A model generated the notes under the pieces. That model was not told the DNA's origin. It saw only the letters and a program-made list of their open reading frames with translations, and searched no databases. DNA of 63,662 bases, the filler included, from Asterionella formosa (lineage: Eukaryota), in NCBI GenBank assembly GCA_002256025.1. It is 11 parts of 11 records of this genome, joined end to end, with 100 filler letters (N's around TTAATTAATTAA, not from the genome) between each part and the next. Parts side by side here need not be neighbours in the genome. Positions count along the whole stretch, not along the records: positions 1 to 24,648 come from NKIB01002195.1; 10 more parts are not named here. One strand, 5' to 3'. Each line of letters begins with the position of its first letter. Position 1 is the stretch's first letter. The position numbers and the translations under genes were made by a program. Shown here one piece after another: positions 1 through 60,486 of the stretch.

Positions 1-2688
1 ATGCTTCCCGGAAAATCTACAAGATACAGACAATGGTCAATTGTTTTCTGGTACAGAGAAGGAGGAACGATTCAGAAAAATTATCAAGAGGTTGCTACAT
101 GGACACGAAGGCGATATGATCTATGATAGGTGCAGGTTGTTGAGGGGAGCCTTGTCATTAACAAAGGTGAGCTACAATATTATGACTTCACCGGTATGTT
201 TCATGGCTGTCGTTCGATTTTCGCAACACTTGGTACCCAGTAGCAGGGTACCGGTACCCTGGTACATCATTCCCACGGGTCTCACACATATTACCTGGTA
301 CCGGGAACGTAGTCGTAAAAAATTAAACTCCCAGTTAAACCCGTAGTGGAAGCTAGCACTAGTACTTTACTGCTACTCCAGGATAGTGCACAAAGCTATT
401 CTTGGCGACAATACCGGTTGTGGTACAAGGTACCAGTACCTAGTACAGGCGCCCATTTGCTCGTATCGATTGGTGTTGAGGGGAACCTTATCGTGAATAA
501 AGGTGAACTACAATATTATGACTATTCCATTGTTGTTCCAAGTACATCGTTGTTAGCACTCACGCATGTACCTAATCTGGTGGCTGCGCCGGTATGGTTC
601 GTACGGCGCATGTATGGAGCATCATATCCAGATATTAAAACCAGGTACCGTTCCAGGGTACGTGTATGCGGGAATAGACCATTTTATGTATTTAGAGTAC
701 CTAGTACTTAATATGGAGTCACCACGAGTACATATACTATAGCACTATATTACAGTAAATAGAGGACCAAGTCTTTTATTGTAGGGGTGTGTGTATATGT
801 CTAATATACATATACCCGAAATGAAGTGAAAACAATAAATTTATAGCTAATGAAAAATAGTGGAAAAAAATGTAGCTACAGTTGTATGATCTAAACACAC
901 ATACTAGCTGTGTATGACCACCAGTGTGATGATCATCAGATATCCTCAATTGATTGGCAATCTAATCTGTGGCACTGTTCTATCTGGAATATATACCTCA
1001 TACATTTTGTCAATTTGCAATGTGGCAGTGAAAAAAAACGCAGCTCAAAGTAGGGCAGTCATCATATCCCACACAACGCTTTGCCAAGCAACAATACTCC
1101 ACCTTTCTTACTATATCCTGCTCAACCCTTGTAAAATTTTCAGCAACCTTACAAACCTAATTCTAAATTTTTGCATTCCTACCACAGAACAAATACTTTT
1201 TGGTGTAACAGAAAGACTACAATACTGACAGAATTGCTTTCTCCCTCCTACCTCTTTGACACACATCCTGCATCATTTCTGTTGGTTCATCAACTTGTTA
1301 ATTGTTGAAAACTTCTTCAAACACCACATTTGAGGCATTTCTGGACTCTCAATCATCATTCTGCATACTTGTCACTCCTGCTACCACCAATAACTAGTAG
1401 TCAGGAGTCAACACTCCTTCAAGATGAGAGTCGACTGGCTGATGTCATCCACCTTAGCTAGTTTCAAAACTAGGCGACACTGCATCTCGATCTGCTGGGA
1501 GTACAACCCAAGTATATAGTTCCAAAAACAAACTGGCAGCTCATACTTCCCTCCTTCACCTGCTGTTGGTGTCCCATCAGTCACACCTTCCTCTCCTTAC
1601 CGCTGCTGCATGCCGAAATACCGAGTACCTGGTACATGAATGAGGATGGGGTTTAATTTGTGTATACGACCGGTACCAGGTACCAGGTACTACAGTGTAC
1701 CGGTAATAGCTAATTTTATGTACTCGTACAGTGTATATTCCTACGATGATCGTGCGTACAGTTATGGTTTAATTAAACCAAAAAATTAAACCCCCAGTTA
1801 AACCGGGTTTAATTTTTCTAGTGGCAAATACTGTTGTAACACGGTGCTTCCACTAGTATTTTCAGATCAATACCGCGCCAGTATTAAAATGACCCAGTAG
1901 ACACATACCAGAGGCCTACGGGAAAATACAACTTGGGTTTAATTTTACCAATTACGGTACGGTACCTGGTGGACCAGCTATTTGGAACGGAGTACCGGTA
2001 ACTGGTACCAGGTACCCTGATACCTACCTGTAGAACCAGCAGTATACCGGTACTGGTACTTACTATGTATTGCCCGAACAATATATACCGGTACCTGGTA
2101 CCAGCACCTGATACCGCTACATATGTGCAGATGACGACAAATGATTCACAGGATCAAACAAACAAGCGTTTTGTTCAAGCGTCCTCTTTTCTTGATAGTA
2201 CAATTTTTGGGGAGACAAAACTCCCCATTTTTCTGCCCTGATTAAGAAGCAGACTGAAGTCCATTTATCAGCCATCAATCACGACCGTGCATGCATGATC
2301 AGCTGCGATCATTTAATATATGTACATGCCATAGTATGCATTATGCATGATTTGTATTCTTGTTATTAGCTACCACTGTATATATTCCTACCTGGTGTAT
2401 AATGTACTCCCTCACCATCATCACGTGACGAAATCGGCACTCATCAGCGTGCAATGACAAAATCACCATACCGGTATGTAAACGTACCTGGTACCTGGTA
2501 CAGGCTGGGACTGCCATCGTTTTGACATGGATCTTATACCGGTACCGGTACCCGGTAGATGATTTGTTTCGTTGGCTGGCTTCATTTGCTCACCATACAC
2601 GCTCGATACACAGATTTTCGTCATATGTCATTACAGTCGTACTGGTATTCTCATTTTAACGACAACATCTGTCTGACATTGCTATTGG

Positions 2689-16241: not shown

Positions 16242-17561
16242 TTCACCAACTTGTATTGCCTCCTATCGTTACTTGTTGTGTGGTACAGGCAGAATGAAGG
16301 GATGTGGAATGGTAGAGCAAAACAAAAGCAGGTGGAGAATATTCGTGCAGTCCTCAGCGATTGACTCTACGTGTGGAAGGATTTGAACACGTGCAGCTTT
16401 CTTAGTATGTATGAAGTCGCTGGTACCAGGTACCAGGTACCAGGGTGTACCAGTAAGCATACTCCGGAGGCCGGAGTACCAGGTACTAAGGGAGTTGCGG
16501 TAAAAGACGGTTTTTACTATGAGGAAAACACAGCTAAAATTCTCTTTTACCTCAACTTGCAAGTTGGTTGCTACCGGCATGCTCTACCCAATATATATCA
16601 CAGGAAAAGAAAATACCTTGTATTGCAATCCATAACAAGGTGAAAAAGTAATTGACCAAAGCAAGGTTGACCTTCTTGTATTGGATGGCTTGGTTGTTAG
16701 AGTTGCAAATCCATGTGCTCGCCAATACAAGGAAATAGGCCCTTTTTTCAATACAAGGTAATTTCCAAAAGGAGCCTCCAATACTAGGTATGGATAGTTT
16801 CCCCAAAATAGTATTTTTATAAACAAGGCGTACCTACCTGGCTTGTATTGGTTCAATATTTTGCATCCACCTTGTACTAGGCCTATTGGTATACCAATCA
16901 TATCATCAGTTCCAAGCCAATCTTGTTAACAGAGATACAAAAATCAAAAAAATGTTGCTCGATCCAATTTTTTGTATCTCACACATCCAGGTGATATGTT
17001 CCTTCCAGCAACACTTTTTTGTTGCTCCAAAATGTGTATCTGTGTGTATTGCTGCAGATACAGCGTTAAGCAACCCTAATTTTATAAATATAATTTATGT
17101 CATGTAATTAAATTAATCAACAAAGACACCATTTTTATCGTAATGGCAACAACGGAAAAGAATTTTGGGAGCAGGGATTGCTTCTCAGCAACAATTATTA
17201 TTATCAATAGCTACAAATGGAATAATGCTTTTCATCACTTGTAAAAGACTTCAGCAATGGCATCCTTTGAATCTTCAGACAATGAAACTAACTCTGCAGT
17301 AAGGAAACAGGATGACCAGTTGGTTGCAAGTATCACTCCTGCTGATTTTTTCATTGTCAACAAAGGGTCTTTGACGACAATAAAAGACATGTCCATTCAA
17401 CAGATGTACCTACAACGACTTTGTTGTATTTGCGTTCACATTAAAATCGCCGGAAACAGAAATAAAACAAAGATGATAACGATTACACTCACTAAGAATT
17501 GGTTAAAGACTTTTGATCTTCACGACATGATTGGGTACAACAAAAAGTCATCAAAAAAAGC

Positions 17562-17699
17562 AAAGAAGTATCTGAAAAGAAATGGCGCTCCCTTTACTCC
17601 TGAATCATCAACAAGGACATCTCCTCACCTAAAGAAGTATCTGAAAAGAAATGGCGCTCCCTTTACTCCTGAATCATCAACAAGGAAGTCTCCTCGCCC
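17562..17699 (+). repeat. 69-bp tandem duplication (KKYLKRNGAPFTPESSTR x2)
   Basis: Copies start at 17562 and 17631 and are near identical. Confidence 0.95.
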
Positions 17700-17752
17700 A
17701 CTACTATCAAAGCAACTTTCTACCACCAGAGAAGACATTGCCAATGACTCAA

Positions 17753-17956
17753 TGGAGGAATGGCTTAGTGGTTAGCACACCCACCATGGTGGCGGGTTCG
17801 ATTCCTGCATTCTCCACCAGCCGTTTTCATGTAGTCCATAGGGTTCCGGGGGGTGCGGCTGACTAGTAAAACTGGTACTAATTGTGACCATCTAGCTATT
17901 TGGTGGGCCCGAGTGCAATTATTGGATAGCTTTAATGTACTATAAAAAATTTCATT
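17753..17956 (+). mobile_element. tRNA-derived SINE-like retroposon (204 bp) with 19-bp target-site duplication
   Basis: A box TGGCTTAGTGG, B box GGTTCGATTCC, T stem GCGGG/CCTGC, acceptor-like ATTCTCC-A-CCA. GACATTGCCAATGACTCAA occurs at 17734-17752 and 17957-17975. Confidence 0.8.
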
Positions 17957-19486
17957 GACATTGCCAATGACTCAAGTACAGATTCCGAATTATCTCCTTC
18001 CCAGTTTTCTGCATTTTCATCTCCAGTTCCTGCTGATATTTTATTGGATGACGATTCTGAAAGATCCCACCAAATTATTAAGAAACAGGGACGACCTCCC
18101 AAGAATCAGAGGAAAAGAAATCATGCTGCAACTGCTCCCAAATATATTAAGAAGCATGGCACATACTATCGAGTAATTAATGTCTTCTTCGATGAGAAAC
18201 ATCGGCAAGATGTTTCGTGTCTTGGGAATACACCAACTATGTGTGAGTTGGACCCAGACGATGATACAGTTGGATCCATGGCATACATCAAACACACCCA
18301 GTTTGAATACCAGCATGATATTGATGATAACTATCCCCTCACTCTTGATTTGTTGGATAGCAAACAATTTTCAGAGGTTATGGAATTTCTAAATGATGCG
18401 CATTACAAGATCTGTTTCAATAATAACAAATTTTCTGGTCAACACGATAACTTTGACAATTTCACTCAAAACCGGCCTTATTGTTTGTACTATCCTTTAT
18501 GGCTTCAACACGTGCCACATTTCTGTGCCTACACAGTACCAAGTTTAAGTGATGGTGTTGCCTAGGACGCACAGTCTAATTCACGTTCCTGCAGAGGATC
18601 ATGTTGCCAAGCTACCTGTTCAACAAAGAAAATGTAGAAAATATGGCAGCAATCAGTTTGAAAACACATCAAAACAAGTGGTCAATGCGCTTATAGAACT
18701 TTCAAAAGCAAACAAGCGCTTTACACAAATGACACTTGCCTCTCAACGTTCCAATGCAGAATTTTCTCGAGCAACTTTTCTTGTAAAACGAGAGAAGGAA
18801 CTAATGGATGTTGTGATTTGACAACATTGCTAACTGTGATGGAAGGTCGAAGGAGTTCCAGTAGTTGATTGAAAGCTTCAAGAGACATGCAATATTCACA
18901 ATGAAAATCTATTCTCATGAAGAAGCTTTGTGATATGCTCATTCCAGTCAATTCATAATTCATTGATGCTCCCAATTTGGAATTCACACTGGCTTTGAGT
19001 TTCTTTCATAGGACTCCAAAATGATAGTGCAACTGCTGCAATTAACAAAAAGCTCTGTTGTTCCGCTTCTATATCAAGATTGTCAATGACAGCCCAACTG
19101 TCAGGTTCTTCTGGTCCATTTGTCATTGTCATTACAGTAATGATGATGGTCAGGCACGTTGAATAATTGAAGCACCCATTGCAAACAATATTTTTGCTGA
19201 GTCTGATACACATGTTTGCAGAGACGGCTACCGGTAGGCTAACTGTTTTGCCAGCCATTAAAGAGATATAGTTGTGAAATTTCATCTCTGTATTGATTCT
19301 TTTTTTTCTGAAGATACAACAAAAAATAGCTTGTATCTCTGTTAAGATTGGCCCTTTAAGGTATACCTTGTTTTGGACAATCCCTGAGAAGGTGAACCTT
19401 GATTTGGACCCAATTACTCATTTGCGAAACCCATTAATTACAGTATCAGGATAATCATTTTAAGGTTAATAGCAAACTATTTTTTT

Positions 19487-20902: not shown

Positions 20903-22503
20903 TTATCGACCGCGAAGGCCAAGAGCGTGTTCAGCTTGAAGTCTGGCAAGATCATCTGTACCAGAAAGGGAAGTAGCTCCAACCTGCCTTTGAAAGAGCT
21001 GAAGGTGTTGCAAATGTCGCAGTCTTTGAAGCTGGAACAACTGGTCTTGTTGTCCCCCTGTAGATCCACCTCCAGACATGCTACCTCCAAGGCCGCCATT
21101 TCCTCCAGAACCGGGGCTTAAACTGGAACCACGGTTTATGTTACCGCCAAGTCCATTGCTCCCGAGTCCGTTCCCACCGAACCCGTTACCGCTGAGTCCG
21201 TTGCCCCCAAGTCCGTTCTCACCAAGGGCATTGCTGCCAAGAGTGTTGTAGGAAACGACTCCAGATTGACCGTGCCCATATGAGGCGGCTCCAACACCAC
21301 CGAGGCCCGAATAGCCGTTGCCAGGGCCTCCCCCACCGAGACCATTAAATGAGCCAATTCCACCGCCATAACCACCACCACCCATGCCATTGCCGAATCC
21401 ATTACTTTGATTGTTCCCGAGTCCACTAACAAGCCCACTGTTCCCACCGAAACTGGAAACACCACCTCCGAGTCCTTGAATACCACCTCCAAGTCCTTGC
21501 ATACCACCTCCGAGTCCTTGCATTCCACCTCCGAGTCCTTGCATGCCACCTCCGAGTCCTTGCATGCCACCTCCGAGTCCTTGCATTCCGCCTCCGAGTC
21601 CTTGCATTCCGCCTCCGAGTCCTTGCATACCTCCTCCGAGTCCTTGCATGCTACCTCCGAGTTCTTGCATGCTACCCCCCAAACCTCCTATGCCCATCTC
21701 CTTCCCCGGAAGAACGGCCGATCCGCCCATACCAGCTGCCATATTTCCTTGCAAATTGCTGAGCTGATGATTGAATGAATGTGAGCTCGCATTCATGGGC
21801 AAACTACCAGGGCCACCAGTTGATCCCCCAGCGGTATTTCTTCGCAATGCAAGAACGCCAGGATTCAAGGCCTGACTGTCTTCGAGTTCAGGAAGGGGAT
21901 TGGTCTTGTCCAGCTTGTAAAAATCAGGCTCGTCTAGCTTCTTCATGGGAAGCTTCTTGTGTGTCTTTGGTAGACGTCGCATGTACTTCTGAAGATGAGG
22001 CTTGCCTCGTAGGAATAGCTGAGGTCGAAAGCGACGAAATCGGGTTAGGCACAATGGGGCGCATCAAGGGATGGTGTGTCCTTGAGCGTTTAAGGTTCAC
22101 TTACCTCATGATAGTACGAGCCTCGATCAGGTCCAGAGCTGATTCGACGGAAGCTCCAAGCATTGACAAGTCGATTGAAAGAATGATAATTGCTATATTC
22201 AAAAAAGAGCGGCATGACTAAGCTCTCGAAGAGATTGGGTTTCAGAACTTTCCACGATCGACCATGCGGCATCCAGGTGATGATATCACCAAACTCTTTC
22301 TGACCAAGGATGGAGTAGAGCTTGACAGGGAACTTCTGCACTCGAATAGATGATTCAAGACTTCGGTTTGATTGCGACGGAGAGGGATCACTGTCGGGGT
22401 CATCAGGGACATTCGCGAAATCTCGGTACTTGTACATCGTAGCATCTGCATCCTCCTGGAGCATAGGAGGAAGAGGAGGTTCGTCAGAGTCAGAGTCAGC
22501 CAT
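20903..22503 (-). CDS. Heat-shock-factor (HSF) family transcription factor; exons 22503-22105 and 22018-20903
   Basis: HSF DNA-binding domain KFPVKLYSIL..ITWMPHGRSW..SNYHSFNRLVNAWSF..YYHE/LFLRGKPHL. Intron 22104-22019. Gly-rich C-terminus. Confidence 0.92.
21462..21679 (-). repeat. Coding minisatellite, about 10 x 21 nt, encoding (GGGMQGL)n
   Basis: Unit CCACCTCCGAGTCCTTGCATG and variants repeated in tandem on the + strand. Confidence 0.95.
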
Positions 22504-38311: not shown

Positions 38312-39887
38312 TTTGATAACTCGTCAATGCTAGCAAAAATGGAATAAAGCAAGGACGACGCTGATGAGATCTTGCTGCGCGCAGGTTTGAGCACGCAACC
38401 CTGAAACACACCACCAATATGTACTGCTGCAGGCGTGATTTGGCTACCAGGTACAAATGCGCGACCAAACCACGCACAGTTTTGTTCCTCCTCGGGCCTT
38501 TACTAACAGGAGTACCCTGGTACCTACCGTGCATAACGGTACATGCTCAATTAAAGGTCGAGCTCTGTCTTTTTTGGAGAGCTTTATGCTGGCCAGCAAT
38601 GCAAAGAACCCCTACTGCACTACCAGTAATATTACGTTTTTACAATATTCAATAAAAAGCAACTGATTGTCAACTCTTGCAGATTGTTGTCATGCATGTA
38701 ATACATCTACTCCTTCCCTGTTGCAGATAGTGTGGAAGATGTCAGAACCTACTACAGGAGAATGTCTTAGTAGTGGCATGCATGCCTCCTCCTAGGCATT
38801 TGGTTTGATTTTCCTGTATTCTCCACCTTCCTTGTGTATGAACTATACTATACATAGCGTTCCTATGATGTGGCTGATAATACCAAGTCAGGTCACAAAT
38901 TTCCCAAAAAGTCTTGGAATTGGAAAGTACAAGGGAAACAATCCATGGTATCAACAATTGCATCCAACAAGGCCCGCACAAGAAGTGAAATATGAGGACA
39001 GCTTTAATGCATGATATAAGGTCGCTTTTATTGTCAAAATGTACTTAAATCAATGACATACTACATAGTCTGATGTATAGTAGTGACCATGGAAATCACC
39101 TGAATTGTACAATCACTGTAACAACTAGCTACAGGAACAAAACAATACACATGCATACATCATTCAACTGTTTCATGAAGCCCTTTATTTGGCAGCAGCA
39201 AAGGATCAGCCAGGCAGCATCACAAATCACTCCTACTCTAATTAAAACGCTCCTGGTCTCAAAAGGCCTTTTGAAATACCAAAATAATGTAAGAAATATA
39301 GCAGATCAGTGTGAGTTATCCCTCGCATTGCTGATATGCATAATAATCTAACCTTAAAAGTGTCTATTGCGGATCTCAATGTTGAATCATTCCACCTTCT
39401 TCTGTGGCAGATAAAAATTTGTGAGTTGATGAAAGCGAACATTTTGACGAAGGATGTTTTAATAAGGCAGCGGAAACCTGGAAAGGGACGCTTTAAGCAT
39501 CCCCATGTTTTGAAAAATAATTTTCCTTGTGCTGAATGTGGCTTTGATTAACTGTGATGGTCAAAATTCCTGGCGCAGTCATGATTTACAAATCGTACCA
39601 TAACAAGAACGTGCAATGAACACAGGTAAATCTGCCAGAGTCTTGCTAACAGTTTCGTCTGGACCATTTTCTGATGCTGCAAGTATGACTTTTGAACAGA
39701 TACAACCAAGACGCCGTTTACAGCACTATTTCGAATTTATGTCTTAAGTGGCTGACATAGCTATTTATGCTACTTTTCTACAATATTATGTTACTTTTTC
39801 AGAAAAGTAAGAAAGGGAAAAGCCAATGGTTACTATTACTAGCCCCTGAATGAAATATTAGTATACTATTGAAATAATTACACATCT

Positions 39888-39959: not shown

Positions 39960-42744
39960 GAGAAGCAATTGTTGAGGTCGACTCCCACAATCCTTACCGT
40001 GCCGCACGGTCTTGCCTTTTTTGTGTGCAAGAAATAGTGGGTTGTCCCCCTACAAGCAGCTTGTGCCGCCTTCCTACTACTAGGCGGTCGGAGTTTCTCC
40101 TAACGCTGCGGCTAAGACAATCACCTTTCGCGAAAAGTTGTTGGGGAATCACCTACGCTAACAAAACCAGGGAAGCACAGGTCTTGTCTGCAGGAAGCAC
40201 AATGAAATACTTGCCTTGAAAGACGAGGGGAGTACAAATGGGCTATAAAACATACTAACATTTAATTACGCACCTGGAATTTGCATTGAAAAATGAGATC
40301 AACTGGATTGAGGTGGAAAAGTTCATTAGTCATTATGACTAAATTTGTTTTGTCCTTTATTCGCCAATTTCTATGCAATTCATGCATTCCTTCGCATATG
40401 ATGAAGTAGAGGATACTGAGTGGTACTCACAATATATTGAGTTGATGCTGCCATGACGACATTTGAATGATGTATGAACATAGAAACTTCTATATTTTGC
40501 ATCATGAAATAATGCAATCAACCAGTGATATTGACAAAGCTTTTGTCCTTCCTTCTTTTCTTAACCAATTTCTGTGCAATTCATACATTCCTTCACCCAA
40601 AGCACTACTATATAAGTATTGATTTGATAGTGCCATGACAAAATGTGAAGGATATATGTACAAAATAACACTTCGATATATTTTGCATCGAAAAATACAG
40701 TCCAATAATGAGTAGTAGTCGCTATTAAGGCCGAAAATGTTTTATCAACAAAGTTAATTTTATATTTACACTGAAAATTTCTTTAAGCCGATAGACGAGG
40801 TATTCATTTGGGTGCATCGACACCTTCTATATTGTTACTTTTCGTGACATTTAGTTGCTTGTAACAAATGAATTATCCTTTAATATAATTATTTTTGAAA
40901 CTTTTAAAGGAAATTTGTCTAAAAAAATCAAATATTTCTATCTCGAACTCAATGTATGAATGTGAAATAGTATGGCATGAAATCTGGGAAGAGTAGTTTC
41001 GGTAATCTTGTTTACTCCTGGTTTAGTGCATATTATTTACTGTAAAATTTTGATCATTCATGCCTAAAAGCAGACATCGAATTTACTGTTAAATTTCCGT
41101 AAATGAAGATGAGTATCGCATATGAATTATCCACTTAAGTAGGATGTTGGTTGAAGTTTGAAAGGAATTATTTGAAACATCAAGTAATTCAATTTTTGTT
41201 CATAAAAAATTCACATGATCCCGTTAAGTTTAACCTCATTTTCAGGGAAGAGGCATAACTTCATGGGAATGATTCAGATCGCTAGCTATGTAGACAAAAT
41301 TTTGAAAAGTGGCGTGTTTTGCGGCTTAGATGTACCGGGCCTTCCAAAAACACACACTTGGGACGGCAGTGTATAAATGTTAATGATGACCTGATTTCAT
41401 GCATTCTTTTTCATACTGATGTGGAATATGTATATAGTAGTATCAATGCATAGTTCTCGAATTGTCAACTATATTTTTAGTGGATTAAAGCGATCCAATA
41501 ATCGCACTTATTGTGCATGGTAGCTTCGTTCTTGGGTTGCTGGTTCTCTACGACTGTTATTCTCGTGTCAGCCGTAGAATTGGATTGTAACAGCAGTCAA
41601 ACATATAATGATCATTTTTATAGCGCATTCTTACTATTTTATTTTTAGAGTTGCCGAAGTCTTTTCGCTCCATGGCCCGCATAAAGTGGGGCAGTGGAAA
41701 GTTTTTGGTTGGTTGTCACTTGCTCCTTCCTTAGTACTTGGAAGCGATTTGGTAGCTTTGTTCTTGGGTCGATTTTCTATGACTGTACTTCTCATCTAAG
41801 GGGGGGGGAGGAGTAAATGTATTGTGAGTGTGTATTGGTCCTTTTTGGCCCCACCACTTGTAGTCCTTTTTGGAGTATCCATAACTTATTATGATTCCAG
41901 GGCTTTGAACTCTTTGCTTTTGTCTTTGTCATCATTGTCTTTGTAATCACAAAAAATTGCTGTGACGAGTGCATCTAGCTGTGGCTCATCTTCTTCATCA
42001 AAAATGACTTTTTTGTTTCTCTGTCTTCTTCACTCTTTGTCAGTGTCTAGCACATCGCCATTCTTGTACTGTAATAGCGCTCACTTTCTTGAAATAGGAG
42101 GCAAACTCTTGCTTTTTCTTTTCTTTTCTCTTGTTTTCTCTGTGTCATTCTACTTCTGTTCTGTTGTGTTGATAACTTTTCCATGTTTCCCATTTTAGTG
42201 TTTGTGTCAAACATCAAATTGACATCAATGCAATCATCACCATTGTTCATTGCTGCTGCATTATACTTTGTCGGCTTTTCCAACTCCTCCTCCCTTTTCT
42301 GCATTCTTTTTCCATCAGATTTCATTAATATCTCATTTGTCTGTCCAAATTTTTTTCTTTCTCTGCTTGGTTGGTTGCTGGGGTATCACCTTTTGTCATG
42401 GTGAATTGGTCGCTTTAGGGGTATTGGGATTCAGAGATTACTTGGTACCAAGTTTTTTTAAACAGACACTCATCACACCCATAAGAGTCAAACCAGGGAC
42501 ACTCATCATGCCCAAAAGAGTTCTCAAAGCAGGGGACACTCATTCTCATTCTCCTTCCTTGTTCTCCACACTCTCTTATTTCAACAACTGGCCTTACAAT
42601 ACATCTAAATTAAATAAATTACCAGTATATCCGTGACAATCCAGTATCTGGTACATATACAATTTTATATGTAATGAAAATCTATGTGTTTCTGAAATGC
42701 ATTTTATTTTGTTGATATAATGTGCCAGAAATACAAGTAGCAAT

Positions 42745-58997: not shown

Positions 58998-59913
58998 CAC
59001 CAGATGGCTGTGGGGCACCACTGGTGGTGGGCACCCTTAACATCAACGGGCTGCAGCGGAAAAAAACCGATCTTCGGTTTCTGTTGCAACAAACCCGGTG
59101 TGATGTTATGGCGGTGCAGGAGACACTGCTCCGATCAACGGATTGGCAGCTTCGTTTGCCAGGTTACCATTGCCTCACAGCAATGGGGGACCTGACAGTG
59201 TCGCAGCGAGGTGTGGCAATACTGGTGTCGACCAAATTCAACTGTACCCCAGTTGGTAAGGCCACACCATTTTGGACTTTTGCGAGAGTCTATGGGGCCA
59301 CGCTCTTGAGGCCTATTCTTGTGGGAACAATTTATGTCCCATGCAGAGCGGATCGCATCCGAGTGCTCAGGGCCCTGCCCCGAGCCTTGGACGCTCTGCA
59401 TCGGGAGTTTCCAGAAGATCCCATTGTGATGATGGGAGACTTCAACATGAAGATGACGGAGTTGCAGATTCTGATGGGACCGTGGCGGCTTCCCTTTCGG
59501 GTGTTACCCATCCAAAGGGGGGGGCCTCCACTCGCCAAAGCCGGCGGGAGGGACAGCCAACACCTGCCAATGATTTCATCACATATTGTGGTGACACAGT
59601 GGCGGCTGTCCCCCCTGCCAGGGTCCTCGACACATGGGATATTTCGGACCACTTCCCAGTTGTTGCGGACCCATCTGGGCTTACCAGAATCCCAGAGATG
59701 GGGATTGCCCCACCACGGCCGGAATCACTGTACCGGCGGATTGTGATGGAGGAGAAGGAACTCAAAGTAACCGCAACTGTGGCTAGTAGTAACTATTGGC
59801 AGCCACTAGCTGACTCGCTGGAAGAGGACCTGGAGGATGTAATCGAGTGTTCACATTCACTTGAAAACCCCACCAGTTACCACCAGGAAAGGTTGAATGG
59901 TATGGCCAAGAAG
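58998..59913 (+). mobile_element. Non-LTR retrotransposon (LINE) AP-endonuclease domain, frameshifted
   Basis: GTLNINGL, DVMAVQET, GTIYVP and MGDFN, then after a frameshift near the G-run at 59517-59524 NDFITY and DISDHFPVV. Confidence 0.88.
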
Positions 59914-60486
59914 TCGATGATGTTGATCATCTCAATTGACTGGGAAGCTGTATAGAATCAGATTGTATCCAAATCTCAAAATGGGAACAATGACTTACAC
60001 CATAGAATGGTCATCATGTCATGTTGCTGCAATAGTACACAAACTTCAAATTATAGGTTTCTACTACTGGATATTCCATAACTTTACAACTATGCGACCT
60101 TTCCATGATGTTGGACATCTCAATTGTCTGGGTAGCTGTATGGAATGAGATTGTATCCTTATCTCGATATTGGAAAAATGACTAACGCCATAGATTGGTC
60201 ATCATGTCATGTTTCAGCATAAACACACAAAATTCAAATGATAGTTTTCTATCACTGGATATTCCATAACTTTGCAACTATGCAACCTCTCGATGAAGTT
60301 GGACATCTCAATTGACTGGGAAGCTGTATAGCATCAGATTGTATCCAAATCTCAAAAAGGGAACAATGACTTACACCATAGAATGGTCATCATGTCATGT
60401 TGCTGCAATAATACACAAACATCAAATTATAGTTTTCTACCTCTGGATATTCCATAACTTTACAGCTATGAGACCTCTTCATGATG
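59914..60486 (+). repeat. Satellite with 188-bp monomer (3 copies, running into the contig end)
   Basis: CATCTCAATTG starts at 59928, 60116 and 60304. Confidence 0.93.

Follow-up and report, generated by a model that had tools for sequence, protein, structure and literature searches.

Pairs of SINEs and LINEs of the 'stringent' kind are known from animals and plants, where tRNA-derived SINEs carry LINE-related tails that are not poly(A). Such pairs are the subject of reviews (e.g., PMC5786205, PMC3747384). For diatoms, the accessible text on Phaeodactylum tricornutum lists 13 'putative SINE' copies (1,454 bp), called the first in a diatom (PMC5859163), and that on Cyclotella cryptica presents SINEs from a RepeatMasker-type annotation (PMC7466962). 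Neither text, in its accessible portions, describes a structure, a duplication, a type of head or a partner. A search of the full-text literature (with subscription journals, Repbase and SINEBase outside it) found no description of the anatomy of a diatom SINE family. The diatom SINEs of the searchable literature are 'putative' automated calls without anatomy.

Here we analysed an insert of 204 bp (17753-17956) in a stretch of 63.7 kb of DNA of Asterionella formosa, hereafter the window. We conclude that the insert is a real copy of a tRNA-derived SINE family. The family seems so far undescribed, though its kind is well known. Coordinates refer to the whole stretch, the insert delimited by the 19-bp repeat described below is called the 17753-17956 copy, and features are on the plus strand unless stated otherwise.

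Genomic context and insertion site

The window consists of assembly contigs joined by N44-TTAATTAATTAA-N44 linkers: contig A (1-24648), contig B (24749-49358) and, from 49359 on, pieces of ~1.5 kb that make up the last 14 kb. Its genes are those of an ordinary nuclear eukaryotic genome, with aquaporins, a dUTPase, kinases, a cyclophilin and coatomer delta. For one neighbouring gene, the best relatives with a name are from Thalassiosirales diatoms, at only 44-46% identity, and a structure-based Atlas entry leads to a cluster that is commonest in Bacillariophyta. These weak leads make a diatom plausible. The minus strand of contig A also carries a long ORF (20906-22063) with glycine-rich repeats of seven residues (GLGGGMQ-like) encoded by 21-bp tandem repeats; it matched no Pfam family.

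The 17753-17956 copy lies between two copies of a 19-mer (17734-17752 and 17957-17975), which are 100% identical, 204 bp apart and 223 bp from start to start. This agrees in coordinates and identity with the perfect 19-bp target-site duplication that the original prediction had placed around 204 bp. When the window was block-shuffled 100 times, a single shuffle contained exact direct repeats of at least 15 nt within 500 bp, so the 19-bp repeat is unlikely to be the product of chance. The remaining real repeats of this kind in the window are tandem arrays.

The insert interrupts a host ORF, as had been claimed. The upstream half (17245-17772) and the downstream half (17936-18562) both translate the 19-mer as D-I-A-N-D-S, in phase; hence removal of 223 bp fuses them into a single frame. 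With the insert in place, a stop follows after seven codons. Uninterrupted relatives exist: two intact proteins, P0001 (416 aa) and P0002 (415 aa), were the sole matches to the host protein among 352 candidates. The downstream half is 82% identical to P0001 over 97% of its length, and both proteins read through the site with a single D-I-A-N-D-S, which provides an empty site at the protein level. An introner was rejected on reading the sequence, since no AG|GT within the repeat is so placed that an intron of exactly 223 nt with GT..AG ends could result.

The host is itself a repeat. We aligned the contigs of four runs (X1, X2, X3 and X7) to 17000-18700 at a likeness of at least 85%; runs containing the locus carry the label of algae or of freshwater metagenomes. 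This stretch behaved as a very high-copy, protein-coding repeat, with 8467 contigs placed on it in X1. Neither half of the ORF matched a Pfam family or an Atlas entry. The host had been labelled a Harbinger element, a name that the data do not bear out: Pfam matched no transposase domain in either half or in 54 ORFs of the window, of which 17 come from 16300-19450, and none of these sequences gave any other convincing Pfam match.

Within the upstream half, a 69-bp tandem duplication (17562-17698, two 68-nt units with 96% identity) doubles a unit of 23 residues. The unit is single in P0001 and P0002, and contigs of X1, X2 and X7 skip 81 bp there with 12 letters in between, so that on balance one unit is missing. 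Hence the duplication is private to this host copy or to its subfamily.

A search for empty sites had been proposed, and insert-free sites are found in DNA as well as in protein. One contig of X1, with a shorter side of 73 nt, and one of X7, with 35 nt, skip exactly the 223 bp, and diverged host copies free of the insert occur in 3, 2, 2 and 1 contigs of X1, X2, X3 and X7, respectively. Contigs of X2 and X3 break at 17752 and 17960 of the insertion site. Since the host stretch is present in such high copy, these DNA-level empty sites are probably paralogues and not alleles.

A dispersed family with common ends

The contigs of the four runs point to many further copies. Bins that cover the head of the insert (17798-17854) and its tail (17912-17968) were 5-10 times deeper in X2 and X3 than the host flanks, where depth is a sum over placed contigs and no copy number. 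Between 62 and 102 contigs covered the tRNA-like head in X1-X3. Thirty-three contigs of X2 had loose ends before 17757, and these agreed with each other at only 0.43, which indicates many different upstream flanks. In this run, 60 contigs had loose ends behind 17945/17947. Overall, the agreement between loose ends was 0.43-0.7.

Scanning metagenomes with a pattern for the tail returned 90 loci, two of which, L048 and L050, proved to be genuine copies, and their flanks are unrelated. The other 88 match in the pattern of 19-25 nt only and look like chance matches. A pattern for the head and trailer had no match in genome_contigs and none in viral_contigs. Several related organisms may have contributed to the metagenome contigs. 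The L050 locus is composite (1-300, minus strand): a full tRNA-like head is followed ~40 nt on by a second partial head, and then by body and tail. As read from this order of modules, it could reflect dimerisation, the insertion of one copy into another, or template switching.

We built an nhmmer profile from the four copies, i.e., L048, L050, the 17753-17956 copy and a second copy in the window. It matched three places in the window, of which only one (41457-41516) is independent of the profile, the other two being rows of its alignment. The second copy (38757-39059; E 2.6e-64, as a member of the profile) is older and more diverged, and has a longer anticodon-like arm. The 6-bp sequence ACTACA abuts both of its ends (38751-38756 and 39060-39065). 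The independent match (minus strand, E 1.8e-6) contains the ~50-nt 3' module only, with unrelated sequence upstream. Its alignment score is 44-57 vs a maximum of 25-30 in shuffles; no target-site duplication was found around it, and it could equally belong to another SINE family.

All four full copies start at the first base of the tRNA-like head or one base before it. A long clean duplication is found only around the 17753-17956 copy, against 6 bp in the second copy and no clear duplication at L048. The element had been proposed to be a multi-copy retroposon with the same ends and different duplications, and the two metagenome loci, the second copy and the contigs of the four runs bear this out. 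Instead of a single copy, or of copies sharing their flanks, we found numerous copies, in four runs and on two metagenome contigs, each set in other flanks. These observations bear on the view that the insert is a one-off retrocopy of a tRNA-like transcript or a captured strong-stop cDNA, or that it arose by segmental duplication or by duplication in the assembly. In its favour, the 63.7-kb window holds only one full close copy, and this copy carries a CCA; yet the CCA is private to it, empty sites exist, and the copies are many and unrelated in their flanks. We regard this explanation as very improbable, and tRNA-primed capture of a strong-stop cDNA or a one-off retrocopy was dropped once the family had been seen.

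The tRNA-like head

A head of 63 nt (17754-17816) resembles a tRNA, with an A box (17761-17771), a B box (17795-17805) and a T arm (17792-17808). Extended to the CCA (17754-17819), this head has a cloverleaf as its minimum-free-energy fold. The acceptor stem has 6 bp, the D stem 3 bp and the T arm 5 bp, and the place of the anticodon arm is taken by a stem of 4 bp that closes a loop of 6 nt. The folding energy is unremarkable for the head (z -0.61, with 54 of 200 shuffles at least as stable), and ordinary for the entire element (z 0.93, 169 of 200). The combined pattern of A and B box has a single match in the window (17761-17805) and none in 100 shuffles.

Automated tRNA detection gave mixed results. 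ARAGORN called no tRNA in the window, nor in L048 or L050. The best Rfam match of the 17753-17956 copy was at chance level (14.4 bits, E 7) and fell in the tmRNA clan (RF01684, mascRNA type), and the second copy in the window had no Rfam match. The head of L048 matched the Rfam tRNA model over its full length, with 28.3 bits (E 0.0034), just under the cut-off of 29. RNAalifold on the four heads gave no cloverleaf, with 12 pairs and one compensatory change. Because the L048 head comes so near the cut-off on the full-length model, the family head is, judging by its sequence, derived from a tRNA and ~8 nt short in the anticodon arm. The predicted tRNA-like head was sustained by the minimum-free-energy fold, by the unique box pattern and by the score of L048. 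The predicted 'shrunken anticodon arm' is present too. It is no private deletion, however: the arm has the same spacing of 15 nt in all three closer copies, so its reduction is a feature of the family. No parent tRNA could be assigned, and loop sequences vary between copies; the L048 head has a G3:U70-like pair, which is at most a lead to the parent.

Behind the head of the 17753-17956 copy stands a CCA (17817-17819), from which a short trailer leads to a T4 run at 17824-17827. The CCA is private to this copy. Position 17819 was covered by 102, 62, 63 and 14 contigs in X1, X2, X3 and X7, and nearly all of these have T there, not A; nearly all other contigs also have T instead of C at 17821. 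The counterpart of the CCA is CCC in L048 and CCT in L050 and in the second window copy. A run of T4-T5 directly follows the head in three of the four copies (the 17753-17956 copy, L048 and L050) and is missing from the second window copy. The CCT or CCC of the relatives, with the T-run, looks in sequence like the trailer and terminator of a tRNA gene, not like a mature tRNA. The head had been predicted to come from a mature, CCA-tailed tRNA. The data do not support such a retrocopy, as there is no CCA in the family consensus (T at 17819).

The T-run is the main argument against simple expression by Pol III, which it could stop before the body. One may accordingly picture a SINE-like element that is not driven by Pol III, in which the tRNA unit ends at the T-run and a LINE copies, via the tail, an RNA made by Pol II or by read-through from neighbouring genes. 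The T4-T5 directly behind the head in three copies fits this, and the trailer-like CCT/CCC with GTC suggests that a complete tRNA gene unit was captured. Against it, the four full copies start where an internal Pol III promoter would make them start, and there is no T-run at all in the second copy of the window. We consider it unlikely that the element works without Pol III.

Body and 3' tail

Behind the T-run follow a family-specific body (17828-17911) and a 3' tail module of ~50 nt (17912-17962), which ends in TTGACAT(T). The tail is the best conserved part of the element (90.7% identity with L048 over 43 nt) and the part shared with the tail-only fragment at 41457-41516. The body lacks ~34-37 nt that other copies have after 17863: contigs join 17863 to 17867 with 34 letters between, and have loose ends at 17863 and 17896. 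The element is 204-210 bp long here vs ~245-300 bp in its relatives. An insertion of very recent date is hard to square with this internal deletion, unless the copy belongs to a short subfamily or lost the bases during reverse transcription.

The element fits a short, non-coding one. Two ORFs overlap the insert, one of 68 aa (17768-17971, minus strand) and one of 73 aa (17645-17863, plus strand); both lie outside the Pfam-scanned set and have no support as genes.

The family 3' end runs through TTGACAT according to the consensus of loose ends, L048, the second window copy and the tail-only fragment. By homology to the family, the 17753-17956 copy may therefore extend to ~17961-17962, and its 3' limit is ambiguous by 5-6 nt. 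Since the family end includes GACAT(T), the first 5-6 nt of the 19-bp repeat represent microhomology between the element end and the target. Of the length predicted for the target-site duplication, 13-14 bp are thus unambiguous, while the other 5-6 bp are shared with the family's own 3' end. At the second window copy the target reads GAACCT+ACTACA and the junction GACAT+ACTACA, a comparison of two copies that is descriptive only.

The ends of the element also bear on its class. No terminal inverted repeats were found at the ends of the 17753-17956 copy, and the length of the duplication varies between copies; we rejected a MITE or cut-and-paste DNA transposon on these grounds. A broader form of this idea is a non-autonomous element that was moved by an unrecognised DNA transposon, or captured during repair, and not by target-primed reverse transcription of the LINE type. 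The unequal duplications (13-19 bp vs 6 bp) could be read in its support. Variable long duplications with microhomology at the 3' junction are nevertheless what target-primed reverse transcription typically leaves, which is not the case for cut-and-paste transposases, and the lack of inverted repeats and the recurrence of defined ends across copies also speak against it. We judge such a mode of movement to be quite improbable.

Proposed insertion mechanism and putative LINE partner

Taken jointly, the evidence is best explained, and with high probability, by one copy of a multi-copy, tRNA-derived SINE, which would descend from a Pol III-transcribed master, would have been reverse transcribed by a LINE via its tail and would have entered the host ORF by target priming. 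The master copy would be transcribed from its internal A and B boxes, past the weak T4-T5 run. The reverse transcriptase of an endonuclease-type LINE would recognise the ~50-nt tail ending in TTGACAT. The nicked target strand would then anneal to the 3' end of the SINE RNA via GACAT/T and prime reverse transcription, and a staggered second cut would give the 13-14 further duplicated bases. The insertion broke the ORF of the host, a high-copy repeat in its own right, into two halves and introduced the stop. Identity between the start of the duplication and the 3' end of the element is what target-primed reverse transcription is expected to leave.

A possible source of the enzymes is present in the same assembly. 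The original prediction had reported an AP-endonuclease LINE fragment at 58998-59913, and we recovered it at 59000-59913 by a Pfam match (Exo_endo_phos, E 2.8e-11) and by 91-94% identity to residues 217-518 of P0123. This protein of 1475 aa, with APE and RVT_1 domains, is the closest relative of the fragment and belongs to a 90%-identity cluster of 222 sequences; RVT_1 is found in 18 of 23 relatives of the fragment. The fragment, of APE and RT type with one frameshift, comprises only the endonuclease part and the stretch that directly follows, and has no 3' end. It lies on its own contig of ~1.5 kb and hence has no physical linkage to the SINE locus. A tblastn search with five LINE proteins covered the window and the fetched metagenome loci and found no other LINE piece in either. 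A tandem array with a period of 188 bp (59928-60290) starts directly after the end of the fragment at 59913. The arrangement suggests that the LINE copy was truncated by, or is embedded in, satellite-like DNA.

A bolder reading is offered here tentatively, as we find it rather doubtful. The 3' end TTGACAT would pair with GACAT-like targets, so that sequence, next to the endonuclease, would in part guide integration; the multi-copy LINE family with the protein of 1475 aa would be the partner; and the family would be the first structurally documented and fairly recently active SINE family of a diatom-like alga.

Comparison with known systems

The small cloverleaf, the shrunken anticodon arm and the CCA of the 17753-17956 copy recall mascRNA-type small RNAs and retro-copied mature tRNAs. 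The family differs from these in that the CCA lies outside its consensus and that the head is placed 5' in a dispersed repeat, not 3' in a long transcript.

Oomycetes of the genus Phytophthora reportedly carry tRNA-related SINEs, the infSINE families. Likened by description only, these are also tRNA-related SINEs in a stramenopile, but in another lineage, and the hosts and their ecology differ. The calls in P. tricornutum and C. cryptica are of the SINE class and probably of the same algal group, as far as the accessible text goes, and can be set beside the Asterionella family by description only.

The family leaves the understanding of how SINEs work unchanged. It is a usable repeat model for the annotation of freshwater algal genomes and metagenomes, its insertion and empty sites offer presence/absence markers for strains, and it is a starting point for work on SINE-LINE pairing in this algal group.

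The closest described systems are the tRNA-derived SINEs. The family departs from them in its anticodon arm, reduced to a 4-bp stem and a 6-nt loop with no variable loop, in the T4-T5 run directly behind the head, and in a tail that ends in TTGACAT, with no A-run or microsatellite; its LINE partner is putative. Features in common are the A and B boxes of the head, a body particular to the family, conservation of a tail of ~50 nt, a defined 5' end, target-site duplications of variable length and many dispersed copies.
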